From assembly GCA_041821645.1 (NCBI GenBank), contig JBGUDX010000001.1, positions 1 to 34,186 on the forward strand: DNA of 34,186 nucleotides, written 5' to 3'. Origin of the DNA: Acidobacteriota bacterium. Lineage in GTDB: Bacteria > Actinomycetota > Thermoleophilia > Solirubrobacterales > 70-9. This document shows, one piece after another, positions 3,054 through 19,765 of this stretch. Made by a program: the position numbers and the translations under genes. The notes beneath the pieces are model-generated. The model did not search any database. It was not told the DNA's origin and saw only the letters and a list, made by a program, of their open reading frames with translations. Positions within the stretch are counted from its first letter, which is position 1. Every line of letters begins with the position of its first letter.

Positions 3054-4294
3054 TGGGTGAGCCGGAGCAGTGAGCCCTCGAGTGTTGTCATGAACACGGT
3101 GCCTCGTTGGTTCGCCCCGAATGAAGAAATCTGTGGCACGGTCAGGCCGGTGGAGCCGGGCGATTTGACCCTGCCGGAACCGGGCCGGAATCGGCGGATC
3201 CGGTTGTCGCACAGGTCGGTGAAGATGTAGCGGCCGCGGAGCGCCGGAACCTTTCGGTCGTCCACGACCAGCCCGCCGATCACCGAGCAGGCCTCCGGGT
3301 GGCGCAGCACCAGTTTCGGCTTGATCGTGCCCGGGATCGGGGAGCCCGCGAAATCGGAAAAGCCTTCGAACGCGTTCCAGCCGAAGTTGGCGCCCCGGGC
3401 CCGGCTCAGCGGCAGATCGTTGACTTCCTCGAATTTGTCCTGGCCGACGTCTGCGATCAGCATTCTCGGTTTCCCGGACCGCCTCAGGTCGAATGACCAC
3501 CGGAACGGGTTGCGCAACCCGTAGGCGAAGATCTCGTCGCGACCCGGCCGGCCGACGAACGGGTTCGAGCCCGGAACCGAATACGGCCGGCCGCCCCCCG
3601 CCCGGGGGTCGATCCGGATCATCTTGCCGAGCAGTGAACCGAGGTTCTGGGCGTTGCCGTCGGCGTCGCCGCCACCGCCACCGTCGCCGGTGGCGAAGTA
3701 GAGGTTTCTGCCGAGGAAATGCAGCTGGCCGCCGTTGTGGTTCGCGTTGTCGCGGTGGGGGATGGTGATGACCCGGCGCCCCGAGTTGCGGCGGGCCCGG
3801 ACCGCGGTCCGCCGCCTGAACTCGTCCACCCTGATGTCACCGGTGGAGTCGGTGTAATAGACGTAGAACCGCTTGCTCTTCCTGTAGCCGGGCGGGAAGG
3901 CGATCGAGAGCAGGCCGCGTTCGCCACCCGATTCGACCCGCCCCCTGATGTCGAGGAAAGGCCGGGCCAGTTTGCGGCCCCGCCGGAGCACCCGGACCCG
4001 CCCCTCCTGCTCGACTACGAACATCAGCCGGGGAAAACCGGGGGCCGACTTGACTTCCACCGGTCGGTTGAAGTCGGCGACGGTGACCAGCTTCGGGCCT
4101 CCGCGGCCGGCGCTGACCTGGCTCTCCCGGTCCGATCCGCCTCTCTCATCGGCGCAGGCGGTCGCGCTGGTCGCCAGCGCGATGATCGTGAAAACCAGGC
4201 CGAGCCCGGCAGGGCGCAGCCGGAACAGTCCCGAGCCGGCACGACGCAGCCGCCCGGCTGGTGTTCTCCCGTTTTTCCCTGGCCCGCCGCCCAT
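3050..4294 (-). CDS. PQQ-dependent (glucose/sorbosone dehydrogenase-like) beta-propeller sugar dehydrogenase, paralogue 1, secreted or anchored
   Basis: 414-aa ORF with 'NHNGGQLHF..LYFATGDGG', 'GKMIRIDP', 'FAYGLRNPFRWSFD' and 'ANFGWNAFEG'. The N-terminus has a basic region plus hydrophobic segment 'LGLVFTIIALATSATAC'. Confidence 0.8.
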   Translation of the reverse strand: MGGGPGKNGRTPAGRLRRAGSGLFRLRPAGLGLVFTIIALATSATACADERGGSDRESQVSAGRGGPKLVTVADFNRPVEVKSAPGFPRLMFVVEQEGRVRVLRRGRKLARPFLDIRGRVESGGERGLLSIAFPPGYRKSKRFYVYYTDSTGDIRVDEFRRRTAVRARRNSGRRVITIPHRDNANHNGGQLHFLGRNLYFATGDGGGGGDADGNAQNLGSLLGKMIRIDPRAGGGRPYSVPGSNPFVGRPGRDEIFAYGLRNPFRWSFDLRRSGKPRMLIADVGQDKFEEVNDLPLSRARGANFGWNAFEGFSDFAGSPIPGTIKPKLVLRHPEACSVIGGLVVDDRKVPALRGRYIFTDLCDNRIRRFRPGSGRVKSPGSTGLTVPQISSFGANQRGTVFMTTLEGSLLRLTQ

Positions 4295-5114: not shown

Positions 5115-5921
5115 ATGGTAAAAGCAACCGCAACAAGGGCCTTCGAGCCCGCGAGGGCGACGTTTACCGAGGCCGGCGAGGTTGTGATCCTCACCGGCCG
5201 GACGCTCATCTCGGCGGTTAAAGCTCCCTATCCCTACGGGAATGAACTCATCGGCCAGTTCCTGTTCGCGCTTCAGCTCTGCTGGTTCCCGATGTTGATT
5301 TCCACCATCGCGTTCGGCTTCGGCGCGCCGGGCCTTCAGGCGGCCAACTTCCTGTCGCTGTTCGGTGCGCTCGACCGGCTCGGTGGCTTTTTCGTGCTCG
5401 CCTCGATTCGTGAGTTCGCCCCGTTCGTGACCGCGGTGGTCGTCGCCGGCGTCGCCGGCACCGCGATTACCGCCGACCTCGGTGCCCGCAAGATCCGGGA
5501 AGAACTGGACGCGCTCCAGGTCCTCGGAGTCGATCCGATCAAGAACCTGGTCGTACCGCGATTTCTCGCCCTGATGCTGATCACCGCCCTGCTCGACATC
5601 TACGCCGTGCTGTTCGGGATCAGCGGTGGCATCGGAGCCGAGATCCTCTACAACCAGCCGCTGGGAGGTTTCTTCGCGACGCTGTTCGCCAACGCGTCTA
5701 CCACCGAACTCGCCGCCTCGGTCATCAAGACCGCCCTGTTCGGATCGATCATCGCGGTCGTCTGCTGTTACAAGGGCATGACCGCCACCGGCGGTGCGGC
5801 CGGGGTCGGCCGGGCGGTCAACGAGGCCGTGGTCGCGGCCCTGCTCGGGGTGTTCTTCTTCAACTACGTGTTCACACAGACCATGCTGGCGACCAACCCC
5901 GACCTGCAGACGATCAAGTAA
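5115..5921 (+). CDS. MlaE/YrbE-family ABC transporter permease (YrbEA-like)
   Basis: 268-aa polytopic membrane protein with typical MlaE/YrbE features ('REELDALQVLGVDP', C-terminal 'CCYKGMTATGGAAGVGRAVNEAVV'). An AGGAGA RBS lies directly upstream of the ATG. Confidence 0.9.
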   Translation: MVKATATRAFEPARATFTEAGEVVILTGRTLISAVKAPYPYGNELIGQFLFALQLCWFPMLISTIAFGFGAPGLQAANFLSLFGALDRLGGFFVLASIREFAPFVTAVVVAGVAGTAITADLGARKIREELDALQVLGVDPIKNLVVPRFLALMLITALLDIYAVLFGISGGIGAEILYNQPLGGFFATLFANASTTELAASVIKTALFGSIIAVVCCYKGMTATGGAAGVGRAVNEAVVAALLGVFFFNYVFTQTMLATNPDLQTIK

Positions 5922-6721
5922 TGCGCGGCGGCTGGCTGACAGTTCCGCGCAGCTTCCTGGAGTCCATGGGGGAGATCTTCCGGTTCTGCTCGATGGTGGT
6001 CAGCCACGTCTTCTCCGGCCGGGTCCTCAAGTACTTCGGAGAGGCGCTCAATCAGGCCGGCATCCTGATTCTCGGTTCGACCACGGTGATCTTCGGCCTC
6101 GTATTCGTGATCGGACTGACCTGCGGGATCGAGGGCGCCTACTTCAACCGTTCGGTCGGCGCTCCGGCATACGCGGGAGTTTTCGCGGCCTGGTGCGACC
6201 TGCGCGAAGCGGTTCCCTACGCGTTCGGCTACATGCTGTCGGCCAAGGTCGGGACCGGAATCGTGGCCGAGCTCGGAGCGATGCGGATTTCGGATGAGAT
6301 CGACGCGCTCGAGGTGATGGGTGTGCCTCCGGTCACCTTCCTCGCGGCGACCCGGCTGCTCGGCGCCTGGATGACCCTTCCGTTCATGTACATGGCGGCG
6401 ATCGGCGTCGGTTATCTCGCTTCATACATCGCCGTCGTGGAGCAGATCGGCGACGTCTCCTCCGGCGGCTACTTATTGATCTTCTGGGCCTTCCAGAACC
6501 CACCCGACATCTTATTCTCGGTAATCAAGGCGATGACCATGGCGACGGTGATCGTCCTGGTCGGCTGCTACTACGGGTACACGGCATCGGGGGGACCGGT
6601 CGGCGTGGGCACCGCCACGGCGAAATCGATGGTCCTGAATATCATCCTGGTGCACATCATCGGTATGTTGGGCACCCTGGTTTTCTGGGGCGCCAATCCA
6701 CGAGCGCCGATAGGAGGGTGA
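5921..6721 (+). CDS. MlaE/YrbE-family ABC transporter permease (YrbEB-like)
   Basis: Paralogue of the previous gene ('SDEIDALEVMGVPP', 'GCYYGYTASGGPVGVGTATAKSMV'). Its start overlaps the upstream stop by 1 nt (TAATG). Confidence 0.9.
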   Translation: MRGGWLTVPRSFLESMGEIFRFCSMVVSHVFSGRVLKYFGEALNQAGILILGSTTVIFGLVFVIGLTCGIEGAYFNRSVGAPAYAGVFAAWCDLREAVPYAFGYMLSAKVGTGIVAELGAMRISDEIDALEVMGVPPVTFLAATRLLGAWMTLPFMYMAAIGVGYLASYIAVVEQIGDVSSGGYLLIFWAFQNPPDILFSVIKAMTMATVIVLVGCYYGYTASGGPVGVGTATAKSMVLNIILVHIIGMLGTLVFWGANPRAPIGG

Positions 6722-6725
6722 GGTT

Positions 6726-7820
6726 TTGAGCCAAGCAGACGAGACCGGGCAGCAGCCCGTCAACCAGCCAGAGGAGTCCCCCGAAGTCGAGGCGGCAGTC
6801 GATCGGGTCGAGCCCGGCGAACCCGACGGGGTGGCGGCCGAGGTCGAGGCCAGCGACGAGGCCGTGGACGGCAGCGCCGAAGAGGTGGAAGCCGGGGTGG
6901 CGGCCGAGGAGTCTTCGGTCAAGGTCATCGGGGGGCGTGTCACGGACAGTGGCTTCGTGGCCAGCGACGGGGCGGTTCTCGGCCGCGACTTCACGCTGCC
7001 GGGTGTTGCCCCCGGCGACAACGACCCGTACAAGTGGCACACCGGGGCCAAGCTCGATCACGGTGGCACCGACGCGATCGAGATCTCCGGCCTGGTCAAG
7101 CAGTTCGGCCGTGCCAGGATTCTCAACGGACTCGACCTCGGCCTGCCCAATGATCAGATCTCAATGGTGCTGGGGCCGTCCGGAACCGGCAAAAGCGTGT
7201 TGATCAAGTGCATCGTCGGCCTGCTCTATCCGGATGCCGGCGACATCCTGGTCAAGGGCGATTCGGTGCCCGCACTGAGCGACGACGACCTGTTCGAGTT
7301 GCGCAAGAAGTTCGGCCTGCTGTTCCAGGACGGCGCGCTGTTCGGTTCGATGAACATCTTCGACAACGTCGCTTTCCCGCTCCGCCAGCACACCGACAAG
7401 GGCGAGGATGAAATCGAGGAGATCTGCAGCCGGCGGCTGCGTGAGGTCGGCCTGGGTGAGGCTCACTACAAGATGCCGAACGAGCTTTCCGGCGGGATGC
7501 GCAAACGGGCCGGTTTCGCCCGGGCTCTGGTGCTCGATCCCGAGATCGTCATGTTCGATGAGCCCGACTCCGGGCTCGATCCGGTCCGTACCGCGCTTCT
7601 GTGCGAGTTGATCCGCGAGGTCCACGCCGAGAACGGCGGCTGCTACCTGGTGATCAGCCACGATTTGAACACCGCACGTCGGATCGCCGACTTCATCGCG
7701 GTTCTCTGGAAGGGGCGGATCGTCGAGCAAGGCCCCAAGGAGGAGCTCTTCGAGTCCGAGAACGAATTCGTCCACCAGTTCCTCCGGGCTGACGTGACCG
7801 GGCCCCTGGCGATGGATTGA
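6726..7820 (+). CDS. Mkl/MceG/MlaF-type ABC ATPase with an acidic N-terminal extension of about 115 aa
   Basis: Walker A 'GPSGTGKS', 'LFQDGALFGSMNIFDNVAFPLRQHT', signature 'LSGGMRKRAGFARAL', Walker B 'VMFDEPDSGLDP'. TTG start 7 nt after a GGAGGG RBS. The next in-frame alternative start is the GTG at 6957. Confidence 0.9.
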   Translation: MSQADETGQQPVNQPEESPEVEAAVDRVEPGEPDGVAAEVEASDEAVDGSAEEVEAGVAAEESSVKVIGGRVTDSGFVASDGAVLGRDFTLPGVAPGDNDPYKWHTGAKLDHGGTDAIEISGLVKQFGRARILNGLDLGLPNDQISMVLGPSGTGKSVLIKCIVGLLYPDAGDILVKGDSVPALSDDDLFELRKKFGLLFQDGALFGSMNIFDNVAFPLRQHTDKGEDEIEEICSRRLREVGLGEAHYKMPNELSGGMRKRAGFARALVLDPEIVMFDEPDSGLDPVRTALLCELIREVHAENGGCYLVISHDLNTARRIADFIAVLWKGRIVEQGPKEELFESENEFVHQFLRADVTGPLAMD

Positions 7821-10273
7821 GCCTGCGGGCGTTTTTTGGCTCGGCCGCCGCGGCGATCGCCCGGCACCCGTGGCCGGTACTCACGGTTGGGGCCGTGCTC
7901 GCGATCGCGGCGATCATCGGCGCGGCCGGGATGGGGGTGCAGCCGGTAACCGAGGCCTTCTTCGACCGTGACTCCGAGGCCTATCGGGCAACCGAGCGGG
8001 CCGACCGGGTGTTCGGCGGTGATCCGGTCGTCATCCTGGCCGAAGGGGATCTGGCCGAAACCCTCACGCCCGAGAACCTGGACCGCCTGGCCGTGCTGGA
8101 GACCTGCGTGTCGGGTGACATCAAGCAGGGCCGGGGCGAGCTGTTCAAGGTCTGCGAGAAGATCGCCGAGCTCGATCCGGTAGCGGTCAGCGCCGGTCCC
8201 GCGAACTTTCTGGGCCGGGCCGTGGCCGGGATCAACCGGGTCTACCAGCAGCAGCTGAAGCGGCTGAACTCGCTGCCGTCCGGGGCTGAACAGTCGGTCG
8301 AGCGTCAGCGCCTGCTCCAGGTGATCGCCGGGGTCGCCGCCCGCTACGGGCTCACCTCGCCGCCCAGCCTCGAGGACCCGAACTTCGTGCGAAAGGTCGT
8401 GTTCGGCTCGGGCAGGAACCCCAAACCGAAGCTTTCCTACCTCTTCCCCAATTCCGGGTCGGCCCAGATCGTACTTCGGCTTCGCAGCGACCTGACCGAT
8501 GCCGAGCGTTCGGAGGCGATCGGATTGATCCGGCAGGCCACCGAGGACCCCTCGACCCGGCTGAACGGGGTGAACTACGTGGTTTCGGGATCGCCGGTCG
8601 TCTTCGACGGCCTCTCCGGCGCGCTCCAGGCCGGCATCCTCGTTCTGGCCGTGGTCGCCCTTGTGCTCATGTCAATCGCCCTGGCCACGGTGTTCGGGTC
8701 AACCTGGAGACTGCTGCCGCTGGCCCTGGCCCTGGCCGGCGTCGTGATCAGTGCCGGCCTGCTTCGGCTGGCCGGCGGCTCGATCTCGCTGGCCGCACTG
8801 GGTGCGGCCCCGATCCTGATCGGGTTGACGGTCGACTACGCGGTCCAGATCCAGGCCCGTTTCGACGAAGCCGATCCGGCCCCGGGGCCGGCCGAGGCTG
8901 CCCGCATCACCGCCTCGGCGGGCCTGCCGATGATCGCCACGGCCTGTCTGGCCACGGCTTCCGGATTCACCGCACTGCTGCTCTCACCGTTTCCCCTGAT
9001 TTCGGAATTCGGGCTGCTGCTCGGGGCCGGCGTGCTGGTCTGCCTGGCGACCGTTTCGATCATGGGCTTCGCCGCCCTGTCGTTGCGCGGGGCCGGTCTT
9101 GCCGCGGCCGCTCCGGTCAGCCGCCTCGCCCTGTTCCAGTGGGTGCGGAAAGCGGCCAAATCGATGCTCGGGCTGACCATTCTCGCGCCGGGGCGATTGC
9201 TGCTGGTTTCCATTTTGATCGCCGCCTGCGGCTGGGCGGCGAGCACCCAGACGGAAACCGGAACAGAGATCAGCCAGCTGCTGCCTTCGCGGTCCGGTGT
9301 GGTCGAGGATCTGCTCGAGGTGGAGAAGATCACCGGAGCGTCCGGTGAGGTCGATCTGATCGTGACGGCACCCGACGTGACCGACCCGGAAGTCGTCGCC
9401 TGGATGGACCGGGTTCGCCGGAACGCACTCGCCCGGGCCGGATATGACGAGTCCGATCCGGATTGCGTGGGGGCCGATCTCTGTCCGGGCCCGGCGATCA
9501 GCGATTTCGTGGCCGATGGCGGGGCCGGGTTGTCCGCGGCCGCGATCCGGGGCACCCTGAGGGGCCTGCCGTTGCGGGAGCGCGAGGCCATCGTCGGCGG
9601 GGGCCTGGCCGGAAACGGGCCGCCGACCGTGACCAAGATCCCCTTTTCGATCCGGACCGGATCGGTCGATCGCCAGAAGGAGGTGATCGAAGGGATCGGC
9701 GCGGCGCTGGATTCGGGGGCGGACGCCCCGGAGGGCGTCTCGGCTGAGCTCACCGGTCTACCGGTTGTCGTCACCTCGTCGGTGGACGAACTCGCCTCGT
9801 CCCGCTACCTGCTGATCCTTGCCGCCCTCACGGCGGTCGGGCTGGTCCTGTTGCTGGTCTACCGTTCACCCCGCAGAGTGCTGGTGCCGCTCGTCCCGAT
9901 TCTGGTAGCCGGTGGCTGGTCGGCACTGATTGCCGCAGTGCTGGACTTGTCGCTGAACCCGCTTTCGGCCATCCTGGCAGTTCTGGTGACCGCGATCGCG
10001 ACCGAGTTCAGCGTGATTCTTGCCGGCCGCTTCTTCCAGGAACGGGAGCGCGGGTCGGGGACGGCCGCGGCCCTCAGGCTGACTTACGGCAGGACCGGAA
10101 TGGCGATCGCGGCCTCGGGTGTCACCGCCATAGCCGGGTTTGCCGCGCTGATGGCCAGTGACATCGGGATGCTTCGCGACTTCGGCTTGATCGCGGTGGT
10201 CGACCTCGCTGTCGCCCTGCTCGGGGTCGCGGTGGTGCTGCCGGCGGTGCTCTCGTGGCAGGAGGGGCGATGA
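7817..10273 (+). CDS. MMPL / RND-superfamily membrane transporter (HpnN/MmpL-like, 12-TM, two periplasmic domains)
   Basis: 818-aa ORF with a 1+5 / 1+5 TM layout and two soluble loops of about 200 aa. It carries the 'GLTVDYAVQ' motif in the first TM bundle. The start overlaps the ATPase stop (TTGA). Confidence 0.85.
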   Translation: MSLRAFFGSAAAAIARHPWPVLTVGAVLAIAAIIGAAGMGVQPVTEAFFDRDSEAYRATERADRVFGGDPVVILAEGDLAETLTPENLDRLAVLETCVSGDIKQGRGELFKVCEKIAELDPVAVSAGPANFLGRAVAGINRVYQQQLKRLNSLPSGAEQSVERQRLLQVIAGVAARYGLTSPPSLEDPNFVRKVVFGSGRNPKPKLSYLFPNSGSAQIVLRLRSDLTDAERSEAIGLIRQATEDPSTRLNGVNYVVSGSPVVFDGLSGALQAGILVLAVVALVLMSIALATVFGSTWRLLPLALALAGVVISAGLLRLAGGSISLAALGAAPILIGLTVDYAVQIQARFDEADPAPGPAEAARITASAGLPMIATACLATASGFTALLLSPFPLISEFGLLLGAGVLVCLATVSIMGFAALSLRGAGLAAAAPVSRLALFQWVRKAAKSMLGLTILAPGRLLLVSILIAACGWAASTQTETGTEISQLLPSRSGVVEDLLEVEKITGASGEVDLIVTAPDVTDPEVVAWMDRVRRNALARAGYDESDPDCVGADLCPGPAISDFVADGGAGLSAAAIRGTLRGLPLREREAIVGGGLAGNGPPTVTKIPFSIRTGSVDRQKEVIEGIGAALDSGADAPEGVSAELTGLPVVVTSSVDELASSRYLLILAALTAVGLVLLLVYRSPRRVLVPLVPILVAGGWSALIAAVLDLSLNPLSAILAVLVTAIATEFSVILAGRFFQERERGSGTAAALRLTYGRTGMAIAASGVTAIAGFAALMASDIGMLRDFGLIAVVDLAVALLGVAVVLPAVLSWQEGR

Positions 10274-11475: not shown

Positions 11476-11501
11476 CTCCGTGCCGCTCAGTGCGGACGGA
11501 G
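11476..11501. terminator. GC-rich hairpin between convergent genes (candidate bidirectional terminator, no U-tract)
   Basis: CTCCGT(G)CCGC-TCAGT-GCGGACGGAG: a 10-bp stem with one bulge. The loop contains the mihF stop codon. Confidence 0.3.
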
Positions 11502-11825
11502 CCGGCTGACCAGGAGCGCTCGCTGTCGCTCGGTCAAAGTATCCAGTCGCTTGTTCTCGTTGAGGCTGACCGAAGAGAGCAGCTTGCGGGTCCGGGTGCG
11601 GCCCCACCGGGACTGACTGCGGAGCAGCTCCGACAGAGTCATGCTCTCGGCCTGCCAGGGACATTCGGCGATCACGTCGGTCACCCCGGTGTCGCCACTC
11701 GCCACAGATCGTTTCAGCGCGGCCCGCGCGAGTCGAATCCGGTTGGCCCGCTCCAGCGCCCTCAGGTGCTGCGGGACGGCAGGGCTGGAATTCGGCGCTG
11801 GGACTGCGGTGGCGGTTGCTTCCAT
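11487..11825 (-). CDS. mihF: actinobacterial integration host factor (mIHF-like nucleoid-associated protein)
   Basis: It aligns by eye with mycobacterial mIHF: 'LRALERANRIRLARAALKR', 'MTLSELLRS', 'RLDTLTERQRALLVSRL'. I place the start at the ATG at 11825 (M46 of the ORF), preceded by a GGAGGAAGG RBS. Confidence 0.75.
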   Translation of the reverse strand: MEATATAVPAPNSSPAVPQHLRALERANRIRLARAALKRSVASGDTGVTDVIAECPWQAESMTLSELLRSQSRWGRTRTRKLLSSVSLNENKRLDTLTERQRALLVSRLRPH

Positions 11826-11958
11826 GGGCGAGCCTTCCTCCGGGGAGTCGTTATGAACGTGACTGGAATTAGCGAATAGGGGACCACCTGGAGCCGGGAA
11901 CTCCACGCTTGACTGGCCTCCCCCGGAACCTTGAACCAACTGCCCGGGCGCTGAAAAC

Positions 11959-11988
11959 AACCTACGCGCTTCCCGCTTCTCGCGTCAA
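11959..11988 (-). promoter_or_regulatory. candidate sigma-A-type promoter for mihF (TTGACG-N18-TAGGTT on the minus strand)
   Basis: Read from the reverse complement: -35 at 11983-11988 and -10 (TANNNT) at 11959-11964. This implies a leader of roughly 125 nt. Confidence 0.25.
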
Positions 11989-12115: not shown

Positions 12116-13369
12116 TCAGCCGGTCAGCCCGTCGAACTCCGAAACCACTTCGCCGGTGATTTCGAGGGCCCGGTCGAGGTGCTCCTTCTCATGGGTCGCC
12201 ATGAGGCTGGTCCTCAGCAGGGCCCCGCTGGGTGGCACCGCCGGGTGGATCGCGACGTTTGTATAGACCCCGGCGTCAAACAGTGCCTTCCAGAGGAGGA
12301 CCGCCTGCCAGTCGTCTCCGACCACCACCGGTACCACCGGGGTGGTGGCGGTTGTACCGTCAGGCATCAGGCCCGGTTCGATCACTTTCAGGCCGAGGTC
12401 CTTGAAGCCCTCGCGCAGGTAATCGGCGTTGCCGAGCAGCTTCGAGTAGAGCGCCGGGCCCTCGGTCCGGCAGATCCTGACCGCCTCCAGGGCCGCGCCG
12501 ACCGCGGCCGGCACGCCGGAGGCGCTGAAGATGAACGAGCGCGAGCTGATTCTCAGGTAGTCGACGACCTCGGAGCTGCCGGCGATGAAGCCACCACAGG
12601 AGGCGAGGCTCTTGGAAAAGGTCCCCATCCGCAGGTCGACCTGATCCTCGACCCCGTAGAGCTCGGCTGCCCCGGCGCCCCGCTGCCCCAGTACGCCCAC
12701 GCCGTGGGCCTCGTCGACCATTATCCGGGCCCCGTAGTGTCTGGCCAGCTCGACCACTCTCGGCAGATCGCACAGGTCACCCTCCATCGAGTAGACGCCG
12801 TCGACCACGACCAGGACGCCTCCGCCGTCGCCGGCGGCGCGCTGAAGCATCTTTTCGAGCTTGTCGGTCTGGTTGTGCCGGAACGGGCGCAGCTTGGCCC
12901 CCGACAGCTTGCAGCCGTCGAGGATCGAGGCATGGTCGCCGGAGTCGGCGATCACGGTGTCGTCGGGACCGAGTATCGCCTGGAGGCAGCCGAGGTTCGA
13001 CTGGTATCCGGTCGAGAATACGATCGCGTCCTCGGTCTCCATCCACTCGGCCAATTCACGCTCCAGATCGAGATGGAGCGGGGTGGTTCCGTTCAGCAGC
13101 CGTGACCCCGTCACCCCGGTGCCGAATTCGTCCAGAGCGTCACGGGCGGCCTGCTTCACGCGGTCGTCACCGGTCAGGCCCAGGTAGTTGTTCGAGCCGA
13201 GCATGATCGTCTCCCGGCCTTCCATTTCGACCACCGGCCCGGCCTGAGAGGTGAGCAGTCGGAAATAGGGGTTCAGGTCGGCGGCGTTGGCTGCTTCGAG
13301 CTGTTCGCGGCGGTCGTGGGTCCGGACCTTTTCAAACAGGTCGATCGGACCGGTGGAAGTCTCGCTCAT
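12116..13369 (-). CDS. PLP-dependent alpha-oxoamine synthase, serine palmitoyltransferase-like
   Basis: 'GTFSKSLASCGGF' (PLP lysine), 'IVFSTGYQSNLG', 'RPFRHNQTDKLEKML', 'DGVYSMEGD', 'VDEAHGVGVLG', 'FIFSAS'. These track the Sphingomonas Spt sequence closely. Start taken at the ATG at 13369 (M31 of the ORF). Confidence 0.9.
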   Translation of the reverse strand: MSETSTGPIDLFEKVRTHDRREQLEAANAADLNPYFRLLTSQAGPVVEMEGRETIMLGSNNYLGLTGDDRVKQAARDALDEFGTGVTGSRLLNGTTPLHLDLERELAEWMETEDAIVFSTGYQSNLGCLQAILGPDDTVIADSGDHASILDGCKLSGAKLRPFRHNQTDKLEKMLQRAAGDGGGVLVVVDGVYSMEGDLCDLPRVVELARHYGARIMVDEAHGVGVLGQRGAGAAELYGVEDQVDLRMGTFSKSLASCGGFIAGSSEVVDYLRISSRSFIFSASGVPAAVGAALEAVRICRTEGPALYSKLLGNADYLREGFKDLGLKVIEPGLMPDGTTATTPVVPVVVGDDWQAVLLWKALFDAGVYTNVAIHPAVPPSGALLRTSLMATHEKEHLDRALEITGEVVSEFDGLTG

Positions 13370-13544
13370 GGGTTCAGTCTGACAAATCAGGCCGGATGGG
13401 ACGGTTTCACGAACCTCACCGGGATCGGCCGGCCGGGCCGCTCCGGTATCCGCCCGCACGTCTCCTCGCCGCTTTCGGCCGGGACCGGCTTGCTATACAT
13501 GGCTGCGTCTTTGCTTCATGTAACTGAGAAATCCGGGCCGGAGG

Positions 13545-14558
13545 GTGATGCCGGGCATCGCTGACAACGGCATCGAGGTCGAGGGCCTGGTCCGCCAGTT
13601 CAAGAACGGCCCCCGGGCGGTCGACGGGATCTCGCTGCAGGTGAAGCCGGGCGAGATCTACGGCTTCCTCGGTCCCAACGGTGCCGGCAAGTCAACAACC
13701 GTTCACATGCTGACCACGCTGCTGCCACCGACCGACGGGGTGGCCCGGGTCGCCGGATTCGACGTCGCTAAAGAAGGACCGCAGGTCCGGAAGGTCATCG
13801 GAGCCGCCCTGCAGGAGGCGGCGCTCGATCCCCACCTGACCGCCGACGAGCACATGCGGCTTCAGACAGCCCTGAACGGGCTCGACCGTGAGGATCGCCG
13901 GGAACGGGGAGCCGAGTTGATCGAACGGGTCGGGCTGAGCGATGCGGCCGACCGGAAGGTCGGTGACTACTCGGGCGGGATGAAGCGCCGGCTGGACCTG
14001 GCTCTCGCCCTGGTGAACAGGCCGCGGGTGCTCTTTCTCGACGAACCGACGACCGGGCTCGATCCGCAGAGCCGGTCCGCGCTCTGGGAGGAGGTGACCC
14101 GGCTCTCCAGGGAGGACGGGGTGACCGTTTTCCTGACTACCCAGTACCTCGAGGAGGCCGATCAGCTTGCGGAACGGGTCGGGATCATCGACGCCGGTCG
14201 AATCGCGGCCGAAGGTACCCCGGCCGAGCTCAAGGCGGAGATCGGGCGGCCGAGCGTCGAGGTCGTCCCGAGGGATCCGGCGAGGGCCGAGCGGTCGGCC
14301 GCCATCCTGAAACGGTTCGGGCGGCCGGTTCCCGCTGCCGGCGAGGCGCTCGGCGTCCGCCTGAGCGAGGGCATCGACGAGCTGGTCGGAATCGTCAGGG
14401 CCTTCGATGAGGCCGAGATCGAACTGGCCAGCCTGGTCCTCAACGAGCCCACCCTGGATGACGTCTTCCTGGCCAAGACCGGTCACCATCTGGAGGGCTC
14501 GGAGGGCGGCGGCGACACCGGCGAGATCCCCCTGCCCGACCAGGCGACGGCAGGCTGA
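13545..14558 (+). CDS. ABC transporter ATP-binding protein (DrrA-like, ABC-2 exporter type)
   Basis: Walker A 'GPNGAGKST', signature 'YSGGMKRRLDLALAL', Walker B 'LFLDEPTTGLDP'. GGAGGG lies immediately upstream; the start is GTG 13545 or ATG 13548. Confidence 0.9.
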   Translation: MMPGIADNGIEVEGLVRQFKNGPRAVDGISLQVKPGEIYGFLGPNGAGKSTTVHMLTTLLPPTDGVARVAGFDVAKEGPQVRKVIGAALQEAALDPHLTADEHMRLQTALNGLDREDRRERGAELIERVGLSDAADRKVGDYSGGMKRRLDLALALVNRPRVLFLDEPTTGLDPQSRSALWEEVTRLSREDGVTVFLTTQYLEEADQLAERVGIIDAGRIAAEGTPAELKAEIGRPSVEVVPRDPARAERSAAILKRFGRPVPAAGEALGVRLSEGIDELVGIVRAFDEAEIELASLVLNEPTLDDVFLAKTGHHLEGSEGGGDTGEIPLPDQATAG

Positions 14559-14574
14559 CCGCAACGATGGCCGG

Positions 14575-15354
14575 ATGAGCCAGTCGGTCCTTCCGATCCA
14601 GGCCGGTGCCATGGCCGGGCGCTCAGTGGTGCGGTTGCTCCGCCAGCCGGCGATGGTGATTCCCAGCCTGATCTTTCCGCTCTTCCTGCTGGCGGTCAAC
14701 GCCGGCGGACTTGACTCGGCCACCGAGCTACCCGGTTTCCCGACCGACTCCTACATCACCTTCGCCCTCGGGTTCACCTTCATCCAGGCGGCGATCTTCT
14801 CGACCATGAACGCCGGTCAATCCCTGGCCCAGGACATCGAGAACGGTTTCTTCAGCCGGCTGATGCTGACCCCGATGAGACCGTCGGCCCTGCTTGCCGG
14901 CCAGCTGGCGGGGCTGGTCCTGCTCGGGCAGTTTCAGACCCTGACCTATCTGGCGGTCGGCCTCGTCGCGGGTGCCCACATCAGCGCCGGGATCGGCGGC
15001 GTCCTGGTCCTCGCCCTGCTGGTTTCGATCATCTCGGTCGGGTTCGGCGGGATCGGTCTGGTGATGGCGATCCGGACCGGGTCGGGCGAGGCGGTCCAGG
15101 GCATGTTCCCGCTGATGTTCGTGCTGCTCTTCTTCAGCTCGATGGCCCTGCCGCGCGACCTGATCGCCCAGGACTGGTACCGGACCGTGGCCACGATCAA
15201 TCCGGTCAGCTACCTGATCGAAGCCATCCGTAGCCTGATGATCACCGGTTGGGACGGTGAAGCGCTCGCCCTCGGGTTCGGGGTGGCGATCGCCCTCGCG
15301 ATCGGCTCGATCTCGGCCGCTTCCCTTTCGCTGAAGGGAAGGATGCTGAAATGA
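14575..15354 (+). CDS. ABC-2 type transporter permease (DrrB-like), paralogue 1
   Basis: Six-TM-type hydrophobic protein. ATG at 14575 (M57 of the ORF), 17 nt after the ATPase stop. Confidence 0.8.
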   Translation: MSQSVLPIQAGAMAGRSVVRLLRQPAMVIPSLIFPLFLLAVNAGGLDSATELPGFPTDSYITFALGFTFIQAAIFSTMNAGQSLAQDIENGFFSRLMLTPMRPSALLAGQLAGLVLLGQFQTLTYLAVGLVAGAHISAGIGGVLVLALLVSIISVGFGGIGLVMAIRTGSGEAVQGMFPLMFVLLFFSSMALPRDLIAQDWYRTVATINPVSYLIEAIRSLMITGWDGEALALGFGVAIALAIGSISAASLSLKGRMLK

Positions 15355-16154
15355 GGAGAGGCCATCCGGGAAAGCGCGGCCCCCAGGCCGACAACTATCT
15401 GTCGGCAGCGCTCGGCGTCTGCTGGCGCTACCTGCACAACCTCTATACGAGGCCGGCCCAGTTCATCCCGTCGCTGCTGTTCCCACTCTTCTTCCTGGCC
15501 GCGTTCGCCGGCGGCCTTTCGGTGGTCGCAGACTCGCCCGGTTTCGGCTACTACGACTACACGGCTTTCCAGTTCTGCTTCGTACTGATCCAGGCTTCGG
15601 CACTGGCCGGGGTCTTCGCCGGGTTCTCGATCGCCTCGGACTTCGAACTCGGCATGGGACGCCGGATGATGCTGGCGACAGAGCATCGCAGCGCGATCGT
15701 GTTCGGCTACGCGATCGGTGCCGCCTCCCGGCTCGGTGTGACCTGGGTCGTGGTCACCGGAGTGGCTCTGCTCGCCGGAATGAGTGTCGGTGGCGGCGGG
15801 GTGGACCTGGCCGGCATGTACAGCCTCGCCCTGCTGGGCAACATCGCCGCGCTGCTTTTTTCGGCCGGAGTCGCACTTCGCTTCCGGACGCTCCAGGCCG
15901 GTCCGCTGATGCAGATGCCCGTCTTCATCCTGCTGTTCCTCGCACCGGTCTACGTTCCCCAGGCGCTGTTGACCGGCTGGATCGAACCGGTCGCCTCGGT
16001 CAACCCGGTGACCACGGTGCTGAACGCGGCCCGCAGTCTGGTGGCCGGGGAACCGTCCGGCGTACTGGCCGCCTACGCGGTCGCCTTCGGCCTGATCGCG
16101 GTCATGGCGGTCTGGGCGATCAGCGGCCTGAGGCGGGCCGAAGCCGCCGGTTGA
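15351..16154 (+). CDS. ABC-2 type transporter permease (DrrB-like), paralogue 2
   Basis: ATGA overlap with the preceding permease. Polytopic membrane protein with the same architecture. Confidence 0.8.
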   Translation: MRRGHPGKRGPQADNYLSAALGVCWRYLHNLYTRPAQFIPSLLFPLFFLAAFAGGLSVVADSPGFGYYDYTAFQFCFVLIQASALAGVFAGFSIASDFELGMGRRMMLATEHRSAIVFGYAIGAASRLGVTWVVVTGVALLAGMSVGGGGVDLAGMYSLALLGNIAALLFSAGVALRFRTLQAGPLMQMPVFILLFLAPVYVPQALLTGWIEPVASVNPVTTVLNAARSLVAGEPSGVLAAYAVAFGLIAVMAVWAISGLRRAEAAG

Positions 16155-16218
16155 TCGCGTGGCCGAATACGGATTCGGAGTTAGTCTGCCCGGAGAAACC
16201 GACGAACAGGAGGTCCAG

Positions 16219-17106
16219 ATGTCAGCGGAGCAAGAGGAAAAGGCGGCCTGGCGAGATCCCGCCCTCGGAGAGGCTCGAACCCTGGAGCTGCCCGGGGGGA
16301 GCATTCGGTATCACGACGTCGGATCCGGTCCGCCGATCGTGTTCGTCCACGGACTCCTGGTCAACGCCAATCTCTGGCGAAAGCCGGTCGGGCTGCTGGC
16401 CCCCGATTTCCGCTGCATCGTGCTCGACATGCCACTCGGCAGTCACCTGCTTCCACTCGAGCCCGACGCCGCGAACGAACCCGAGGCCGCCGCCGGCCTG
16501 ATCGGCGACGCGCTCGAGGCTCTGGATCTGGACCAGGTCACCCTGGTCGGCAACGACAGCGGTGGGGCGCTCTCGCAGGTCCTGATCACTACCAGGCCAG
16601 AGCGGGTCGGACGGCTGGTGCTCACTTCATGCGATTTCCGGGACACGTTCCCGCCGAAGATGTTCGCCTATTTCAAACCGGCGGCAGCGGTGCCGGGTCT
16701 TCTCTGGCTGACCCTCCAGCCGTTGCGCCTCCGTCTTCCCCGCCGGTTGCCGATTGCGTTCGGATGGCTGGCCAAGAGCCCGATCGACCGCCGGGCCGAG
16801 GACTCATATCTGCTGCCCGCGCTTTCGGACAGCGGGGTCCGGCGGGACGTTCGGAAATTCATCAAGGGGATAGACACCGCGACGACCAACGCCGCGGCTG
16901 ACCGGCTCGGCCGGTTCGAGCGGCCCAGCATGATCGCCTGGTCCGGAGACGACCGGTTGTTCCCCCGGTCCGACGCGGAGGGGCTGGTCCGGGAGCTTCC
17001 CGACGCGAGACTCGAATTGATTGAAGATGCCTACACCTTTTCCCCGGAAGACAACCCGGCGCGGCTCGCGGAGCTGATCCGGGAATTCGTCCGGGAACCG
17101 GCCTGA
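16219..17106 (+). CDS. alpha/beta-fold hydrolase (epoxide hydrolase / haloalkane dehalogenase-like nucleophile elbow)
   Basis: 'PIVFVHGLLVNANLW' (HG oxyanion motif) and 'LVGNDSGGAL', which aligns with the HDWGSAL-type Asp-nucleophile elbow. ATG at 16219, preceded by AGGAGG and a 5-nt spacer. Confidence 0.85.
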   Translation: MSAEQEEKAAWRDPALGEARTLELPGGSIRYHDVGSGPPIVFVHGLLVNANLWRKPVGLLAPDFRCIVLDMPLGSHLLPLEPDAANEPEAAAGLIGDALEALDLDQVTLVGNDSGGALSQVLITTRPERVGRLVLTSCDFRDTFPPKMFAYFKPAAAVPGLLWLTLQPLRLRLPRRLPIAFGWLAKSPIDRRAEDSYLLPALSDSGVRRDVRKFIKGIDTATTNAAADRLGRFERPSMIAWSGDDRLFPRSDAEGLVRELPDARLELIEDAYTFSPEDNPARLAELIREFVREPA

Positions 17107-17112
17107 GCGATC

Positions 17113-17156
17113 CCGGGCAGTCGGGGCGATTCAACAGCCCCGCGGAAACTGCCCGG
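17113..17156 (+). terminator. nested GC-rich stem-loop between the hydrolase and GNAT genes (candidate I-shaped terminator or attenuator)
   Basis: The outer stem CCGGGCAGT (17113-17121) pairs with ACTGCCCGG (17148-17156). The inner stem CGGGGC (17122-17127) pairs with GCCCCG (17137-17142). No U-tract. Confidence 0.35.
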
Positions 17157-17178
17157 CCCGGGTGGTAGGTTCGACCGG

Positions 17179-18315
17179 ATGTCGAATCTGACCGTAAGGC
17201 CGGTGACGAGCCGTCGGGACCTCAAGCGGTTCGTCAAGGTCCCGTTCCGGGTACATCGCGACCATCCGCAATGGGTACCGCCGCTGATCGTTGACCGAAT
17301 GCAGTTCCTGAACCGGTCGAAGAACCCCTACTTCGATCACGCCGAGGTCGAACTGCTGATCGCCGAGCGTGACGGCGAGCCGGTGGGGCGGATCAGCGCC
17401 CAGATCGATCAACGCTGGGACGAGTATCGCGGCGGCAACGACGGCCAGTTCGGCTTCTTCGAGACGGTGAACGATTCCGAAGTCGCCAGGGCGCTGCTCG
17501 ATGCCGGCTGCGAGTGGCTGGCCGGGCGCGGGCGCGAGCGCGTGGTGGGACCGATGGACTTCACCACGAACGACGAGGTCGGCATTCAGATCGACGGCTT
17601 CGATCTGAAGCCGGTCATCCTCGAAAACTGCCACCAGCCTTACGTTCAGACGCTGGTCGAGGAGAACGGCTTCACCAAGGCGATGGACCTGCAGATGTGG
17701 CATCTCGAGATGGGCAAGCTGATGGAGGGCCTCAAGTTCCACCCCGCGATCCACGAGGCGGCCCAGAAGAGCCTGGACGAACACGGGATCAAGATCCGCA
17801 AGATGAGGAAGTCCGACATGGCCGCCGAAATCGCCAGGTTCCACGAGGTCTACAACGAAGCATGGGGAGAAAACTGGGGCTTCGTCCCGATCACTTCCGA
17901 TGAGGTCGATTTCCACGCCAAGATGCTCAAGCTGGTGATCGATGAGGACTGGGCGATGATCGCCGAGAAAGAGGACGGGGAGGTGGTCGGCGCGGCGATG
18001 ACCCTGCCGGACATCAATCAGGTTCTGGCGAAGATGGGCGGTCGGCTGTTGCCGCTCGGCTGGCTCAGGTTCCTTCGCGGGAGACGGAGGGTAGACGTGG
18101 TGCGGATCCTCGCGCTCGGCGTCAAGAAGGACTATCAGCACACCGGGGTGGCGGCCGCGCTCTACGTGCGGCACGTCCAGACCACCGACCCGGACGGGGT
18201 CATGACCGGCGAGGCCGGCTGGATCCTGGAGACCAACGAACCGATGAACCGCGCACTCGAGGGGATGGGCGGTGTGGTCAACAAGAAGTTCCGGGTCTAC
18301 GAGAAGTCCCTGTAA
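17179..18315 (+). CDS. GNAT-fold acyltransferase-like protein (uncharacterised family of about 380 aa)
   Basis: 378-aa ORF. 'ALGVKKDYQHTGVAAALY' fits GNAT motif A (Q/R-x-x-G-x-G/A). The N-terminal 'DLKRFVKVPFRVHRDHPQWVPPL' is typical of a conserved long-GNAT family. Confidence 0.7.
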   Translation: MSNLTVRPVTSRRDLKRFVKVPFRVHRDHPQWVPPLIVDRMQFLNRSKNPYFDHAEVELLIAERDGEPVGRISAQIDQRWDEYRGGNDGQFGFFETVNDSEVARALLDAGCEWLAGRGRERVVGPMDFTTNDEVGIQIDGFDLKPVILENCHQPYVQTLVEENGFTKAMDLQMWHLEMGKLMEGLKFHPAIHEAAQKSLDEHGIKIRKMRKSDMAAEIARFHEVYNEAWGENWGFVPITSDEVDFHAKMLKLVIDEDWAMIAEKEDGEVVGAAMTLPDINQVLAKMGGRLLPLGWLRFLRGRRRVDVVRILALGVKKDYQHTGVAAALYVRHVQTTDPDGVMTGEAGWILETNEPMNRALEGMGGVVNKKFRVYEKSL

Positions 18316-18389: not shown

Positions 18390-18719
18390 GTGGCTCCTGT
18401 GACCGACGTTGAGTTAGAGGGCGAGCTGGTCTCGGAGGAAGATGTCGAGGCCGAAGCGGCTGAGCAGGTCAGGGCGCTGCCCCGCGAGTACGACCTGCCG
18501 AAAGGCGCACTGCCGGCACTTCGCAGCGAGGTCACGACCGCGGCCATCGCAGTCGCCGGGGGCGCTCTGGCCGGAGCTGCCACCGTGGCCGCGGTGAGGG
18601 CCGTGAGCGGAGGGGGAAGCCAGAAACGGCGCAGTCGTCGTCTTGCCAAACGGACCCGTCCGGCCAACGTGGTCGCCAGCCGCTCCTTCCTGGTCGACGT
18701 CCACGTCCTCGGCCGCTAG
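18390..18719 (+). CDS. hypothetical small protein (acidic N-terminus, one Ala/Gly-rich hydrophobic segment, basic C-terminus)
   Basis: 109-aa ORF with a GTG start and moderately high GC3. It ends 15 nt before the next gene. No recognisable RBS or family. Confidence 0.4.
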   Translation: MAPVTDVELEGELVSEEDVEAEAAEQVRALPREYDLPKGALPALRSEVTTAAIAVAGGALAGAATVAAVRAVSGGGSQKRRSRRLAKRTRPANVVASRSFLVDVHVLGR

Positions 18720-18733
18720 CCGACAGGTATCCC

Positions 18734-19765
18734 GTGGAACCGATCGAGATCGCCGTCCGGCCGATCTCGCCGTTAAGGCTTCCGGGGTCCGGTGGAGACC
18801 GGACACTGCAGCTGAGCGGCCCCTGGGCTCGGCGCCTGCTGGTGATCGACCGGGCCGCGATGCTGATCCGCTTCCGGCGACTGGACTCGGGGGAGGTCCT
18901 GTTCGGCGCGCATGGCCTCGAACCCGACCGGCTCGAGGGCCCGGGCAGCGAATCCCTGATCGAGCCGGGCGAGCGGCACCTGCTGGCCGGGATAGGGCGT
19001 ATGCGATTCGCGGTCGGCGTCGATCAGGATCTGACCGACTTCCACCAGCGCTTCCGGTCGGACCCGGTCCTCGGTCCGGCGATCCGCGGCCGGCTCGACC
19101 GACGGTCGAGACGGCGTCCCGTCCCCTGGGAGGTCCTGATCTGGGCGATAACCGAGCAGTTGATCGAGTATCGCCGGGCGGCCGCCATCCAGCGTCAGAT
19201 GATCCGCCGCTGGGGCATCCGGCTGCGCAACGGTGACCCCGCCGGCGATGCCGCCGCAGGGCGTCGCAGGGGGCCGGCCCGGGGCCGGGCGGGGCGCGGG
19301 AAGGGCCTGCCGATGTCGACGGTACCGTCCCCCGAGGTGATCGCCCGTCTTGCACCGGCCGAGCTGGCCGCCTGCGACCTGAGCCCGCGACGGGCGCTGG
19401 CCGCGATCATGGTCGCCCGGGAGATCAGCCGGGGGCGCTGTGATCCGGCCGATCCCGCTGATGACCGCCGGCTGATGGCGATACGCGACATCGGGGCCTG
19501 GACGATCGCCTGCCTCGGGTTGCGCGGCCGTGGTGATACCGACGCCCTGCTGGCCGGCGATCTCGGTCAGGTCAAGCTGGTCGGCTACCTGCTCGGACTC
19601 GGCCGGCCGGCCGAGGTCGAGGAGGTCGAACAGTTCTACCGGCCCTATGCGCCCTACCGGGGCCTGGCCGGGGACTATCTGCTCGGCGCCGCCGGGGAGT
19701 CCGTCCACGGCCCCGGCAACCGGGCCCGGATCCGGCACCGGGCGGACCTCCGCCACGCCGCCTGA
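18734..19765 (+). CDS. HhH-GPD superfamily DNA glycosylase (AlkA-like 3-methyladenine glycosylase II)
   Basis: 'PWEVLIWAITEQLIEYRRAAAIQRQMIRRWG' (start of the HhH-GPD domain), 'IRDIGAWTIACLGLRGRGDTDALLAGDLGQVKLVG' (helix-hairpin-helix plus catalytic Asp). GTG start. Confidence 0.7.
   Translation: MEPIEIAVRPISPLRLPGSGGDRTLQLSGPWARRLLVIDRAAMLIRFRRLDSGEVLFGAHGLEPDRLEGPGSESLIEPGERHLLAGIGRMRFAVGVDQDLTDFHQRFRSDPVLGPAIRGRLDRRSRRRPVPWEVLIWAITEQLIEYRRAAAIQRQMIRRWGIRLRNGDPAGDAAAGRRRGPARGRAGRGKGLPMSTVPSPEVIARLAPAELAACDLSPRRALAAIMVAREISRGRCDPADPADDRRLMAIRDIGAWTIACLGLRGRGDTDALLAGDLGQVKLVGYLLGLGRPAEVEEVEQFYRPYAPYRGLAGDYLLGAAGESVHGPGNRARIRHRADLRHAA

Follow-up and report, generated by a model that had tools for sequence, protein, structure and literature searches.

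Two divergently oriented genes, encoding a serine palmitoyltransferase (Spt)-like synthase and an N-acyltransferase resembling the bacterial ceramide synthase (bCerS), were identified in a 34,186-nt stretch of contig JBGUDX010000001.1 (assembly GCA_041821645.1; the whole stretch is referred to below as the window), and it is this pair that probably constitutes the functional unit of the locus. The best protein matches of the window come from metagenome-assembled genomes (MAGs) of Solirubrobacterales/Thermoleophilia (Actinomycetota), and its GC content is 63-72%. A sequence-only reading of the same DNA had proposed a six-gene set for a sphingoid or amino-lipid, in which the two enzymes are joined by an ABC-2 exporter and an alpha/beta hydrolase encoded between them. 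The condensing enzyme and the N-acyltransferase kept their place in such a set, whereas the exporter and the hydrolase did not. The two core genes are:

12116-13369, minus strand: Spt-like alpha-oxoamine synthase (AOS), 417 aa, core gene 1 (PF00155 and Spt ranking)
17179-18315, plus strand: bCerS-like tandem-GNAT N-acyltransferase, 378 aa, core gene 2

The synthase, the acyltransferase and their pairing

The synthase was taken to start from an ATG that gives 417 aa, because all close homologues are 417-420 aa long; the open reading frame (ORF) itself reaches an upstream GTG at 13459. The protein matches the Pfam family Aminotran_1_2 (PF00155) with 183 bits, and the top NCBIfam families are CFB-type Spt (413.8 bits) and beta-proteobacterial Spt (392.6 bits), with lower scores for bioF (351.9), KBL (347.7), ALAS (236) and CqsA (210 bits). 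None of these scores attains the curated cut-off of its family (426.45 for bioF and 460 for KBL). In the ranking of PDB entries, the Spts of Sphingobacterium multivorum (8guh/3a2b, 331.7 bits), Sphingomonas wittichii (2x8u, 286.9 bits) and S. paucimobilis (2jg2, 267.9 bits) come first, followed by KBL (3tqx, 251.8 bits), cysteate acyltransferase (220 bits), E. coli BioF (189 bits) and ALAS (172 bits); ALAS, CqsA and CFAT, all compared with the synthase by PDB bit score, scored lower than the Spts.

The alignments revealed that the catalytic His, the Asp/His, the Lys that binds pyridoxal 5'-phosphate (PLP) and the carboxylate-binding Arg are all conserved in the synthase, and that its DHASILDG, VDEAHGVG, GTFSKS and LLRTS segments align with the catalytic positions of the Spts of S. 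paucimobilis, S. wittichii and S. multivorum. Among the motifs quoted in the sequence-only reading, GTFSKS, GVYSMEGD and FSTGYQSNLG are present, while the supposed 'RFRHN' in fact reads RPFRHN. Neighbour-joining (NJ) trees were constructed from characterised Spts, E. coli BioF and Kbl, and AOS genes adjoining GNAT homologues elsewhere. The AOS proteins of Solirubrobacterales, including that of the window, were monophyletic in 200/200 replicates and their clade was nested among the characterised Spts and the bCerS-linked AOS. The split from E. coli Kbl/BioF was recovered in 131-171 of 200 replicates for the inclusive clade (with L049) and in 42-141 of 200 for the strict one, the values varying with sampling; the basal node of the Spt clade lost bootstrap support once divergent Streptomyces and Nocardiopsis sequences were added. 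In contrast to the bio and tdh-kbl loci of E. coli, which were inspected for comparison, the window has no bioA/B/D or tdh genes. Taken as a putative assignment, an Spt-like rather than a BioF- or KBL-like synthase is supported; that the enzyme matches Spt and not KBL had been claimed from its motifs, and both NCBIfam and PDB indeed rank Spt highest.

The match of the 378-aa protein to PF00583 is weak (32.3 bits), the NCBIfam search gave no match, and a PDB sequence search with the profile of its family, which is large (7,871 representatives at E <= 1e-3), returned nothing significant (best E 0.11). An AlphaFold2 model of the protein (pLDDT 84.2, pTM 0.84) was matched by Foldseek to the tandem-GNAT structures 7q3a (E 3e-14), 2wpw, 5kf1 and MshD 2c27, and the model resembles MAB_4324, the clavulanate tandem GNAT, a glucosamine N-acetyltransferase and MshD. 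A tandem-GNAT fold is thus predicted.

Since the curated libraries name no bCerS family, the link to bCerS came through primer sequences, namely the published cloning primers of Caulobacter bcerS (ccna_01212; PMC11087976 supplement), by means of which a reference bCerS was found. The reverse primer encodes the C-terminus ...VYEKAL, and the window protein ends in ...RVYEKSL. A metagenome scan with this primer led to contigs L091 and L111, each of which matches both primers exactly, 1.15 kb apart, with a 384-aa ORF bounded by them. The BLASTP comparison of the window protein with the product of L091:4449-5603 revealed 37% identity over 385 aa (E 6e-79), the alignment running from end to end (residues 2-378 of 378 in the window protein and 8-384 of 384 in the reference). 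Judged from this alignment, the homology of the window protein to the experimentally characterised bCerS of Caulobacter extends over its full length. The sequence-only reading had named bCerS as the protein to set beside this GNAT gene product, and the end-to-end homology, together with the tandem-GNAT model, bears out that choice. In P0241 (784 aa), another member of the family, the bCerS-like protein is duplicated in tandem.

A scan of the genome collection with a 10-sequence family alignment of the GNAT protein yielded 80 loci. AOS adjoins the GNAT gene in approximately 33 of the 40 distinct Solirubrobacterales loci; in other phyla the same holds for 24 of 43 loci, the pairs there belonging to Bacteroidota, Ignavibacteria, Gemmatimonadota, Verrucomicrobiota, Zixibacteria, Caldisericaceae, Anaerolineales, Bailinhaonella and others. 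In the closest relatives of the window (L001, L002 and L003) the two genes are divergent and directly adjacent, 30-120 bp apart, with neither transporter nor hydrolase between them; the AOS of L001 and L002 shares 85% identity with that of the window, and the gap between the Spt and bCerS genes in relatives without an insertion is ∼25-120 bp. The pair is also carried by a cultured strain, Conexibacter stalactiti KCTC 39840 (L030). In addition, a natural fusion was found, P0258 (780 aa), in which an Spt-like AOS domain (residues 57-396) is followed by a bCerS-like domain (residues 420-780).

Two groups of loci depart from this picture. In three Solirubrobacterales/Thermoleophilaceae MAGs (L023, L027 and L036) the AOS next to bCerS is seen as fragmented tblastn matches only, which could reflect frameshifts, assembly errors or pseudogenes. 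Four other loci (L018, L034, L038 and L042) have a bCerS-like gene (49-61% identity) and full flanks with no AOS within 10 kb; these genes may be paralogues or rearranged copies.

The inserted ABC-2 module and the neighbouring transport operon

The remaining features of the locus are as follows:

5115-10273, plus strand: MlaE-MlaE-ABC ATPase-MMPL operon (Pfam matches)
13370-13544, no strand: divergent intergenic stretch separating the Spt-like gene from the inserted ABC operon
13545-14558, plus strand: DrrA-type ABC ATPase, accessory, lineage-specific insertion (TIGR01188)
14407-15354 (ORF), plus strand: ABC-2 permease 1, accessory (PF01061, 76.6 bits)
15351-16154, plus strand: ABC-2 permease 2, accessory (PF01061, 28.2 bits)
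16159-17106, plus strand: alpha/beta hydrolase with an Asp nucleophile (GNDSGG), accessory (PF00561, 71.9 bits)

An ORF check of the window confirmed the presence and the coordinates of the six genes of the proposed set. The coding frames of the synthase, the ATPase, both permeases and the GNAT gene are backed by a GC content at third codon positions (GC3) of 0.82-0.86; the frame of the hydrolase is under the GC3 cut-off of 0.80, and its coding status rests on the Pfam match. The ATPase scores 335.5 bits with the drrA model TIGR01188 (cut-off 312.45). Both permeases exceed the PF01061 cut-off of 26.9 bits and are far under that of drrB (67.6 and 45.3 vs 223 bits). The ATGA coupling that had been described for the exporter genes is real between permease 1 and permease 2 (15351-15354) and absent between DrrA and permease 1, where the DrrA stop lies at 14556-14558 and the next in-frame ATG, which is probably the true start of permease 1, at 14575. 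The nucleophile elbow of the hydrolase reads GNDSGG and hence its nucleophile is Asp, just as had been deduced from the letters.

The ABC module is present between the pair in three lineages only, those of the window, of Solirubrobacterales bacterium 67-14 (L004/L005) and of L006, and its orthologues at the same place share 80% identity in the case of DrrA and 70% (relative to L004) in the case of permease 2. In 67-14 a MarR gene comes before the module and the hydrolase is missing. Nor did any other surveyed locus have a counterpart of the hydrolase between the pair, the sole match among the loci (45% identity) being located elsewhere in L025, and no DrrA-like gene above 150 bits occurs next to the pair in the 43 loci from other phyla. 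Because the two genes of the pair directly adjoin each other in most relatives, the exporter and the hydrolase are not regarded as core parts, and a requirement of the pathway for DrrA, the permeases or the hydrolase is not supported. From the sequence comparison, the inserted block is best read as a lineage-specific efflux-type cassette in an originally very short divergent intergenic region. What is conserved of the divergent arrangement emphasised in the sequence-only reading is therefore the Spt/bCerS pair, not its combination with the exporter and the hydrolase. In the lineage of the window the ABC genes and the bCerS-like gene may be co-transcribed, as the ABC operon lies directly upstream of the latter on the same strand, the gap between hydrolase and bCerS-like genes being 72 nt. 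By virtue of this position the ABC module could also have a secondary part in the handling of the lipid, although this is considered unlikely.

The MlaE-MlaE-ABC ATPase-MMPL operon is situated 1.8 kb upstream of the Spt-like gene; positions 7817-7820 are common to its ATPase and MMPL genes. A homologue of its MMPL (35-46% identity) is found 2-7 kb upstream of AOS in most Solirubrobacterales loci, a linkage which could be plain synteny. MMPL genes also adjoin the Spt/bCerS/CerR clusters of Bailinhaonella, Nocardiopsis, Streptomyces and a Gram-negative MAG (L082:12076-14658, L115:2938-5151, L113:1-153 and L116:410-2809, respectively), and the products of these share 25-27% identity with the window MMPL. 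MMPLs could be a recurrent class of ceramide transporters, or their recurrence could be a coincidence, and the MlaE/MMPL operon is a possible candidate for a lipid-transport partner. As a conserved exporter, MMPL was not accepted and is kept as a lead only, given the 25-27% identity and a linkage explicable by synteny.

Several further ORFs surround the locus. A small S13-like H2TH-domain protein is encoded between the MMPL operon and the Spt-like gene (11487-11960, minus strand), a position kept in relatives; by its sequence it looks like a protein of the actinobacterial integration-host-factor (mIHF) type. Downstream of the bCerS-like gene, a 109-aa ORF with one hydrophobic segment (18390-18719, plus strand) is followed by an Arg-rich 343-aa ORF (18734-19765, plus strand) for which the Pfam search gave no match; a guess that the latter might be DNA-glycosylase-like is supported by no search. 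The order of these two ORFs after the bCerS-like gene is kept in all close relatives (L002-L005), and they probably represent unrelated housekeeping synteny. Two minus-strand ORFs whose coordinates overlap (1650-3500 and 3050-4294) both match PF07995 (glucose/sorbosone dehydrogenases); probably two paralogues lie side by side here, and the start assigned to the first ORF is too far upstream. The Rfam and tRNA scans of the window gave no match.

Reductase, product and rival readings

The substrates, the product, the order of the reactions and any role of an exporter are inferred, the mechanism being modelled on the homologous pathway of Caulobacter. The synthase, which is PLP-dependent, would condense an acyl thioester with L-serine or with a compound closely analogous to it, forming a 3-keto long-chain base (3-ketosphinganine in the case of serine). 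The thioester is probably acyl-CoA, since there is no dedicated acyl carrier protein (ACP) gene nearby. Bacteroidota-type Spts use acyl-CoA, and a dedicated ACP/acyl-ACP synthetase, as found in proteobacterial and Streptomyces-type clusters, is not a universal feature. The tandem-GNAT enzyme would then N-acylate the 3-keto base to 3-oxo-dihydroceramide, which a reductase encoded elsewhere may convert to dihydroceramide.

A number of points weigh against reading the pair as a ceramide-type unit. The amino-acid and acyl substrates cannot be read from the sequence, and the synthase remains under all three Spt equivalog cut-offs (413.8 vs 640, 392.6 vs 500 and 320.9 vs 670 bits; models NCBIfam NF047600, NF047599 and NF047603). 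The non-Spt outgroups of the NJ trees are two only, E. coli BioF and Kbl, and the bootstrap of the Spt clade is moderate and depends on the sequence set. The wider neighbourhood is largely syntenic across Solirubrobacterales; adjacency within this order is consequently weak evidence when taken alone, and the argument for pairing rests on the other phyla and on the fusion. The ABC module, for its part, has been kept at 70-80% identity in three lineages, directly upstream of bCerS. Finally, partner genes were sought in the window and 42 further Solirubrobacterales loci (∼10 kb on each side, 761 kb in total), and, at the thresholds applied, no homologue of CerR, ACP, acyl-ACP synthetase or acyl-CoA dehydrogenase was linked to the pair; nor are there any Solirubrobacterales proteins among the best 120 relatives of Bailinhaonella CerR. 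The clusters brought to light by this search for CerR relatives and by two further comparisons of gene context all belong to other taxa. A complete ceramide pathway (Spt, bCerS and CerR) is thus not demonstrated.

The only matches of the CerR search in the Solirubrobacterales loci were weak ones to short-chain dehydrogenases/reductases (SDRs) in L021, and tblastn searches with the ACPs of L113 and L115 and the AMP-ligase of L113 detected nothing linked to the pair. The caveat of the sequence-only reading, that neither a reductase nor an ACP gene is visible nearby, accordingly holds within 10 kb for the window and for every Solirubrobacterales locus. The reductase may be unlinked in this order, replaced by another SDR, or absent with 3-oxo-ceramide as the product, and because none of the CerR, ACP and acyl-ACP synthetase genes is linked, it is uncertain whether the final product is a reduced ceramide or a 3-oxo-ceramide.

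Outside Solirubrobacterales, neighbour clustering revealed a gene for a ∼330-aa protein of the NAD-dependent epimerase/dehydratase family (PF01370) beside the pair in 23 of 43 loci. This protein is homologous to the SDR encoded beside Spt on an alphaproteobacterial bCerS contig and was therefore assigned to the CerR family. Complete clusters were found in actinobacteria as well: in Streptomyces sp. NBC_00723 (L113) genes for an AMP-ligase, ACP, two acyl-CoA dehydrogenases, Spt, bCerS and a fatty-acid hydroxylase are accompanied by a divergent CerR gene; in Nocardiopsis aegyptia (L115) MMPL-Spt is divergent from ACP-bCerS-CerR; and in Bailinhaonella thermotolerans (L082) Spt is divergent from bCerS-CerR-MMPL. 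Actinobacterial homologues of the three ceramide genes have already been reported, as stated in PMC12134224 with reference to Stankeviciute et al. (2022), and the bacterial ceramide gene set is present in many phyla (PMC11334938). In view of that report and of these clusters, the earlier remark that such a system would be unusual in an actinobacterium was overstated.

Two loci deserve separate mention. In a Solirubrobacteraceae MAG (L037:2516-3130) a gene of the fatty-acid hydroxylase superfamily directly follows bCerS; its product is 52% identical to the hydroxylase of the Streptomyces cluster (L113:117-755), which fits a sphingolipid-type product. The Gram-negative MAG L116 encodes AOS, a bCerS-like protein and CerR, and then a second, different GNAT (398 aa, 7002-8198) with a faint Acetyltransf_6 match; MlaC and OEP genes are also near.

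The synthase might be thought a housekeeping BioF or KBL that merely happens to lie by an unrelated GNAT gene, as the JGI annotation of its homologues ('8-amino-7-oxononanoate synthase') and the ∼350 bits still reached with the bioF and KBL hidden Markov models (HMMs) would have it. Yet those scores are lower than both the cut-offs of the two families and the Spt scores, no bioA/B/D or tdh gene is near, the tree sets the synthase apart from E. coli BioF and Kbl, and adjacency to bCerS recurs across phyla and is joined by the fusion. Such an identity, being largely refuted by HMM scores, tree, context and fusion, was rejected as extremely improbable. It seems doubtful, too, that the pair makes an N-acylated amino-ketone lipid instead of a classical sphingolipid, with glycine, alanine or another substrate, or with a 3-oxo product, serving either as an aminolipid of the membrane or in signalling. 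Of the characterised enzymes, those closest to the synthase are Spts that use serine, the homology to bCerS extends end to end, and one Solirubrobacteraceae genome has the sphingolipid-type fatty-acid hydroxylase gene after bCerS. On the other hand, the sub-threshold Spt scores, the separate clade formed by the Solirubrobacterales AOS (200/200) and the lack of linked CerR, ACP and acyl-ACP synthetase genes in any locus of the order would all suit such a lipid, though the last of these loses force in that Bacteroidota, among other groups, produce sphingolipids even though their reductase genes are unlinked (PMC11334938, ISME J).

The view that all six genes form one dedicated make-and-export system, with the ABC-2 transporter flipping or exporting a ceramide-like lipid over the single membrane and the hydrolase trimming or recycling this lipid, has to contend with ∼30 Solirubrobacterales loci, L001 and L002 included, where the pair is adjacent with no transporter, and with the 43 loci from other phyla, none of which has a DrrA-like gene above 150 bits by the pair. 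The module of L004, with MarR and without the hydrolase, has the look of a typical drug-efflux cassette, and the hydrolase is unique to the lineage of the window. DrrABC-type transporters do export lipids in mycobacteria, and this general knowledge, the same strand and 72-nt gap shared by the ABC operon and the bCerS-like gene, and the recurrence of the module between the same two genes in three lineages are in its favour; with identities of 80% and 70% the module is about as conserved as the core genes on either side of it, and this points to vertical retention. On balance, a six-gene system of this kind is rather improbable. With comparable reserve it may be speculated that the single-membrane Solirubrobacterales/Thermoleophilia make a reductase-independent sphingolipid-like lipid by means of Spt and bCerS alone (e.g. 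3-oxo-dihydroceramide or a non-serine analogue), and that a DrrAB-type ABC-2 transporter with an Asp-nucleophile hydrolase has been recruited in some lineages to flip, export or remodel that lipid, or the neighbouring MlaE/MMPL operon does so.

Relation to known systems

The two-gene pair of Spt-like synthase and bCerS-like acyltransferase, which we favour, places the locus within the known bacterial ceramide system, to which it belongs. According to the accounts given in PMC11087976 and PMC11324152 of the work of Stankeviciute et al. (2022) and Olea-Ozuna et al. (2021), the ceramide genes of Caulobacter crescentus code for Spt (CCNA_01220), bCerS (CCNA_01212) and CerR (CCNA_01222). Like Caulobacter, the window has an Spt-like PLP-dependent enzyme and a soluble GNAT-type bCerS homologue (37%, E 6e-79), and the latter shares the C-terminal motif YRVYEK-L with Caulobacter bCerS. 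Unlike in Caulobacter, no homologue of CerR, AcpR or AasR lies near the pair in Solirubrobacterales, and the two genes are divergent neighbours in this order, whereas those of Caulobacter are spread over a 17-gene region. Moreover, the host is of the Gram-positive type, where the outer-membrane role and the periplasmic CerR step have no obvious equivalent.

The same two core families are found in Streptomyces (L113), Nocardiopsis (L115), Bailinhaonella (L082) and many clusters of Bacteroidota and Ignavibacteria MAGs. Compared with the Spt-bCerS-CerR clusters of actinobacteria and others, the window proteins show 34-40% (bCerS) and 38-45% (AOS) identity, and the divergent Spt/bCerS arrangement is shared with Bailinhaonella. 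All three actinobacterial clusters contain CerR and an adjacent MMPL gene, those of Streptomyces and Nocardiopsis also ACP, and that of Streptomyces also the AMP-ligase and the fatty-acid hydroxylase; the lineage of the window has none of these extra genes in the operon and carries the ABC-2/hydrolase insertion instead. The Spt of S. multivorum (3A2B, 8GUH) is the best-scoring structure for the synthase (331.7 bits, residues 24-408 aligned), the motifs FSTG(F/Y)QSNLG, SMEGD, GTFSKSLAS and PAVP being common to both, but the identity is only ∼44% and the score with the CFB-type Spt model is 413.8 bits against a cut-off of 640. The inserted module, in turn, is similar to DrrAB exporters in that its ATPase passes the drrA cut-off, it has two ABC-2 permease paralogues and, in L004, it includes MarR; it differs from them in permeases that are far under the drrB cut-off and in its unusual position between two lipid-synthesis genes.

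In the literature searched there was no paper linking Solirubrobacterales to serine palmitoyltransferase. The locus also calls for some caution in the reading of gene neighbourhoods, as adjacency in one genome suggested a six-gene system and the relatives show two of the six genes as conserved partners. Both the two-gene version, with neither CerR nor ACP linked, and the fusion fit the proposed bacterial order of reactions, in which acylation precedes reduction, and the former offers a simple system for biochemistry. The presence of the pair in Conexibacter stalactiti KCTC 39840 makes the prediction testable in a cultured strain. If it is true, bacterial sphingolipid synthesis would extend to an entire order of soil Actinomycetota, whose members are abundant and poorly cultured.

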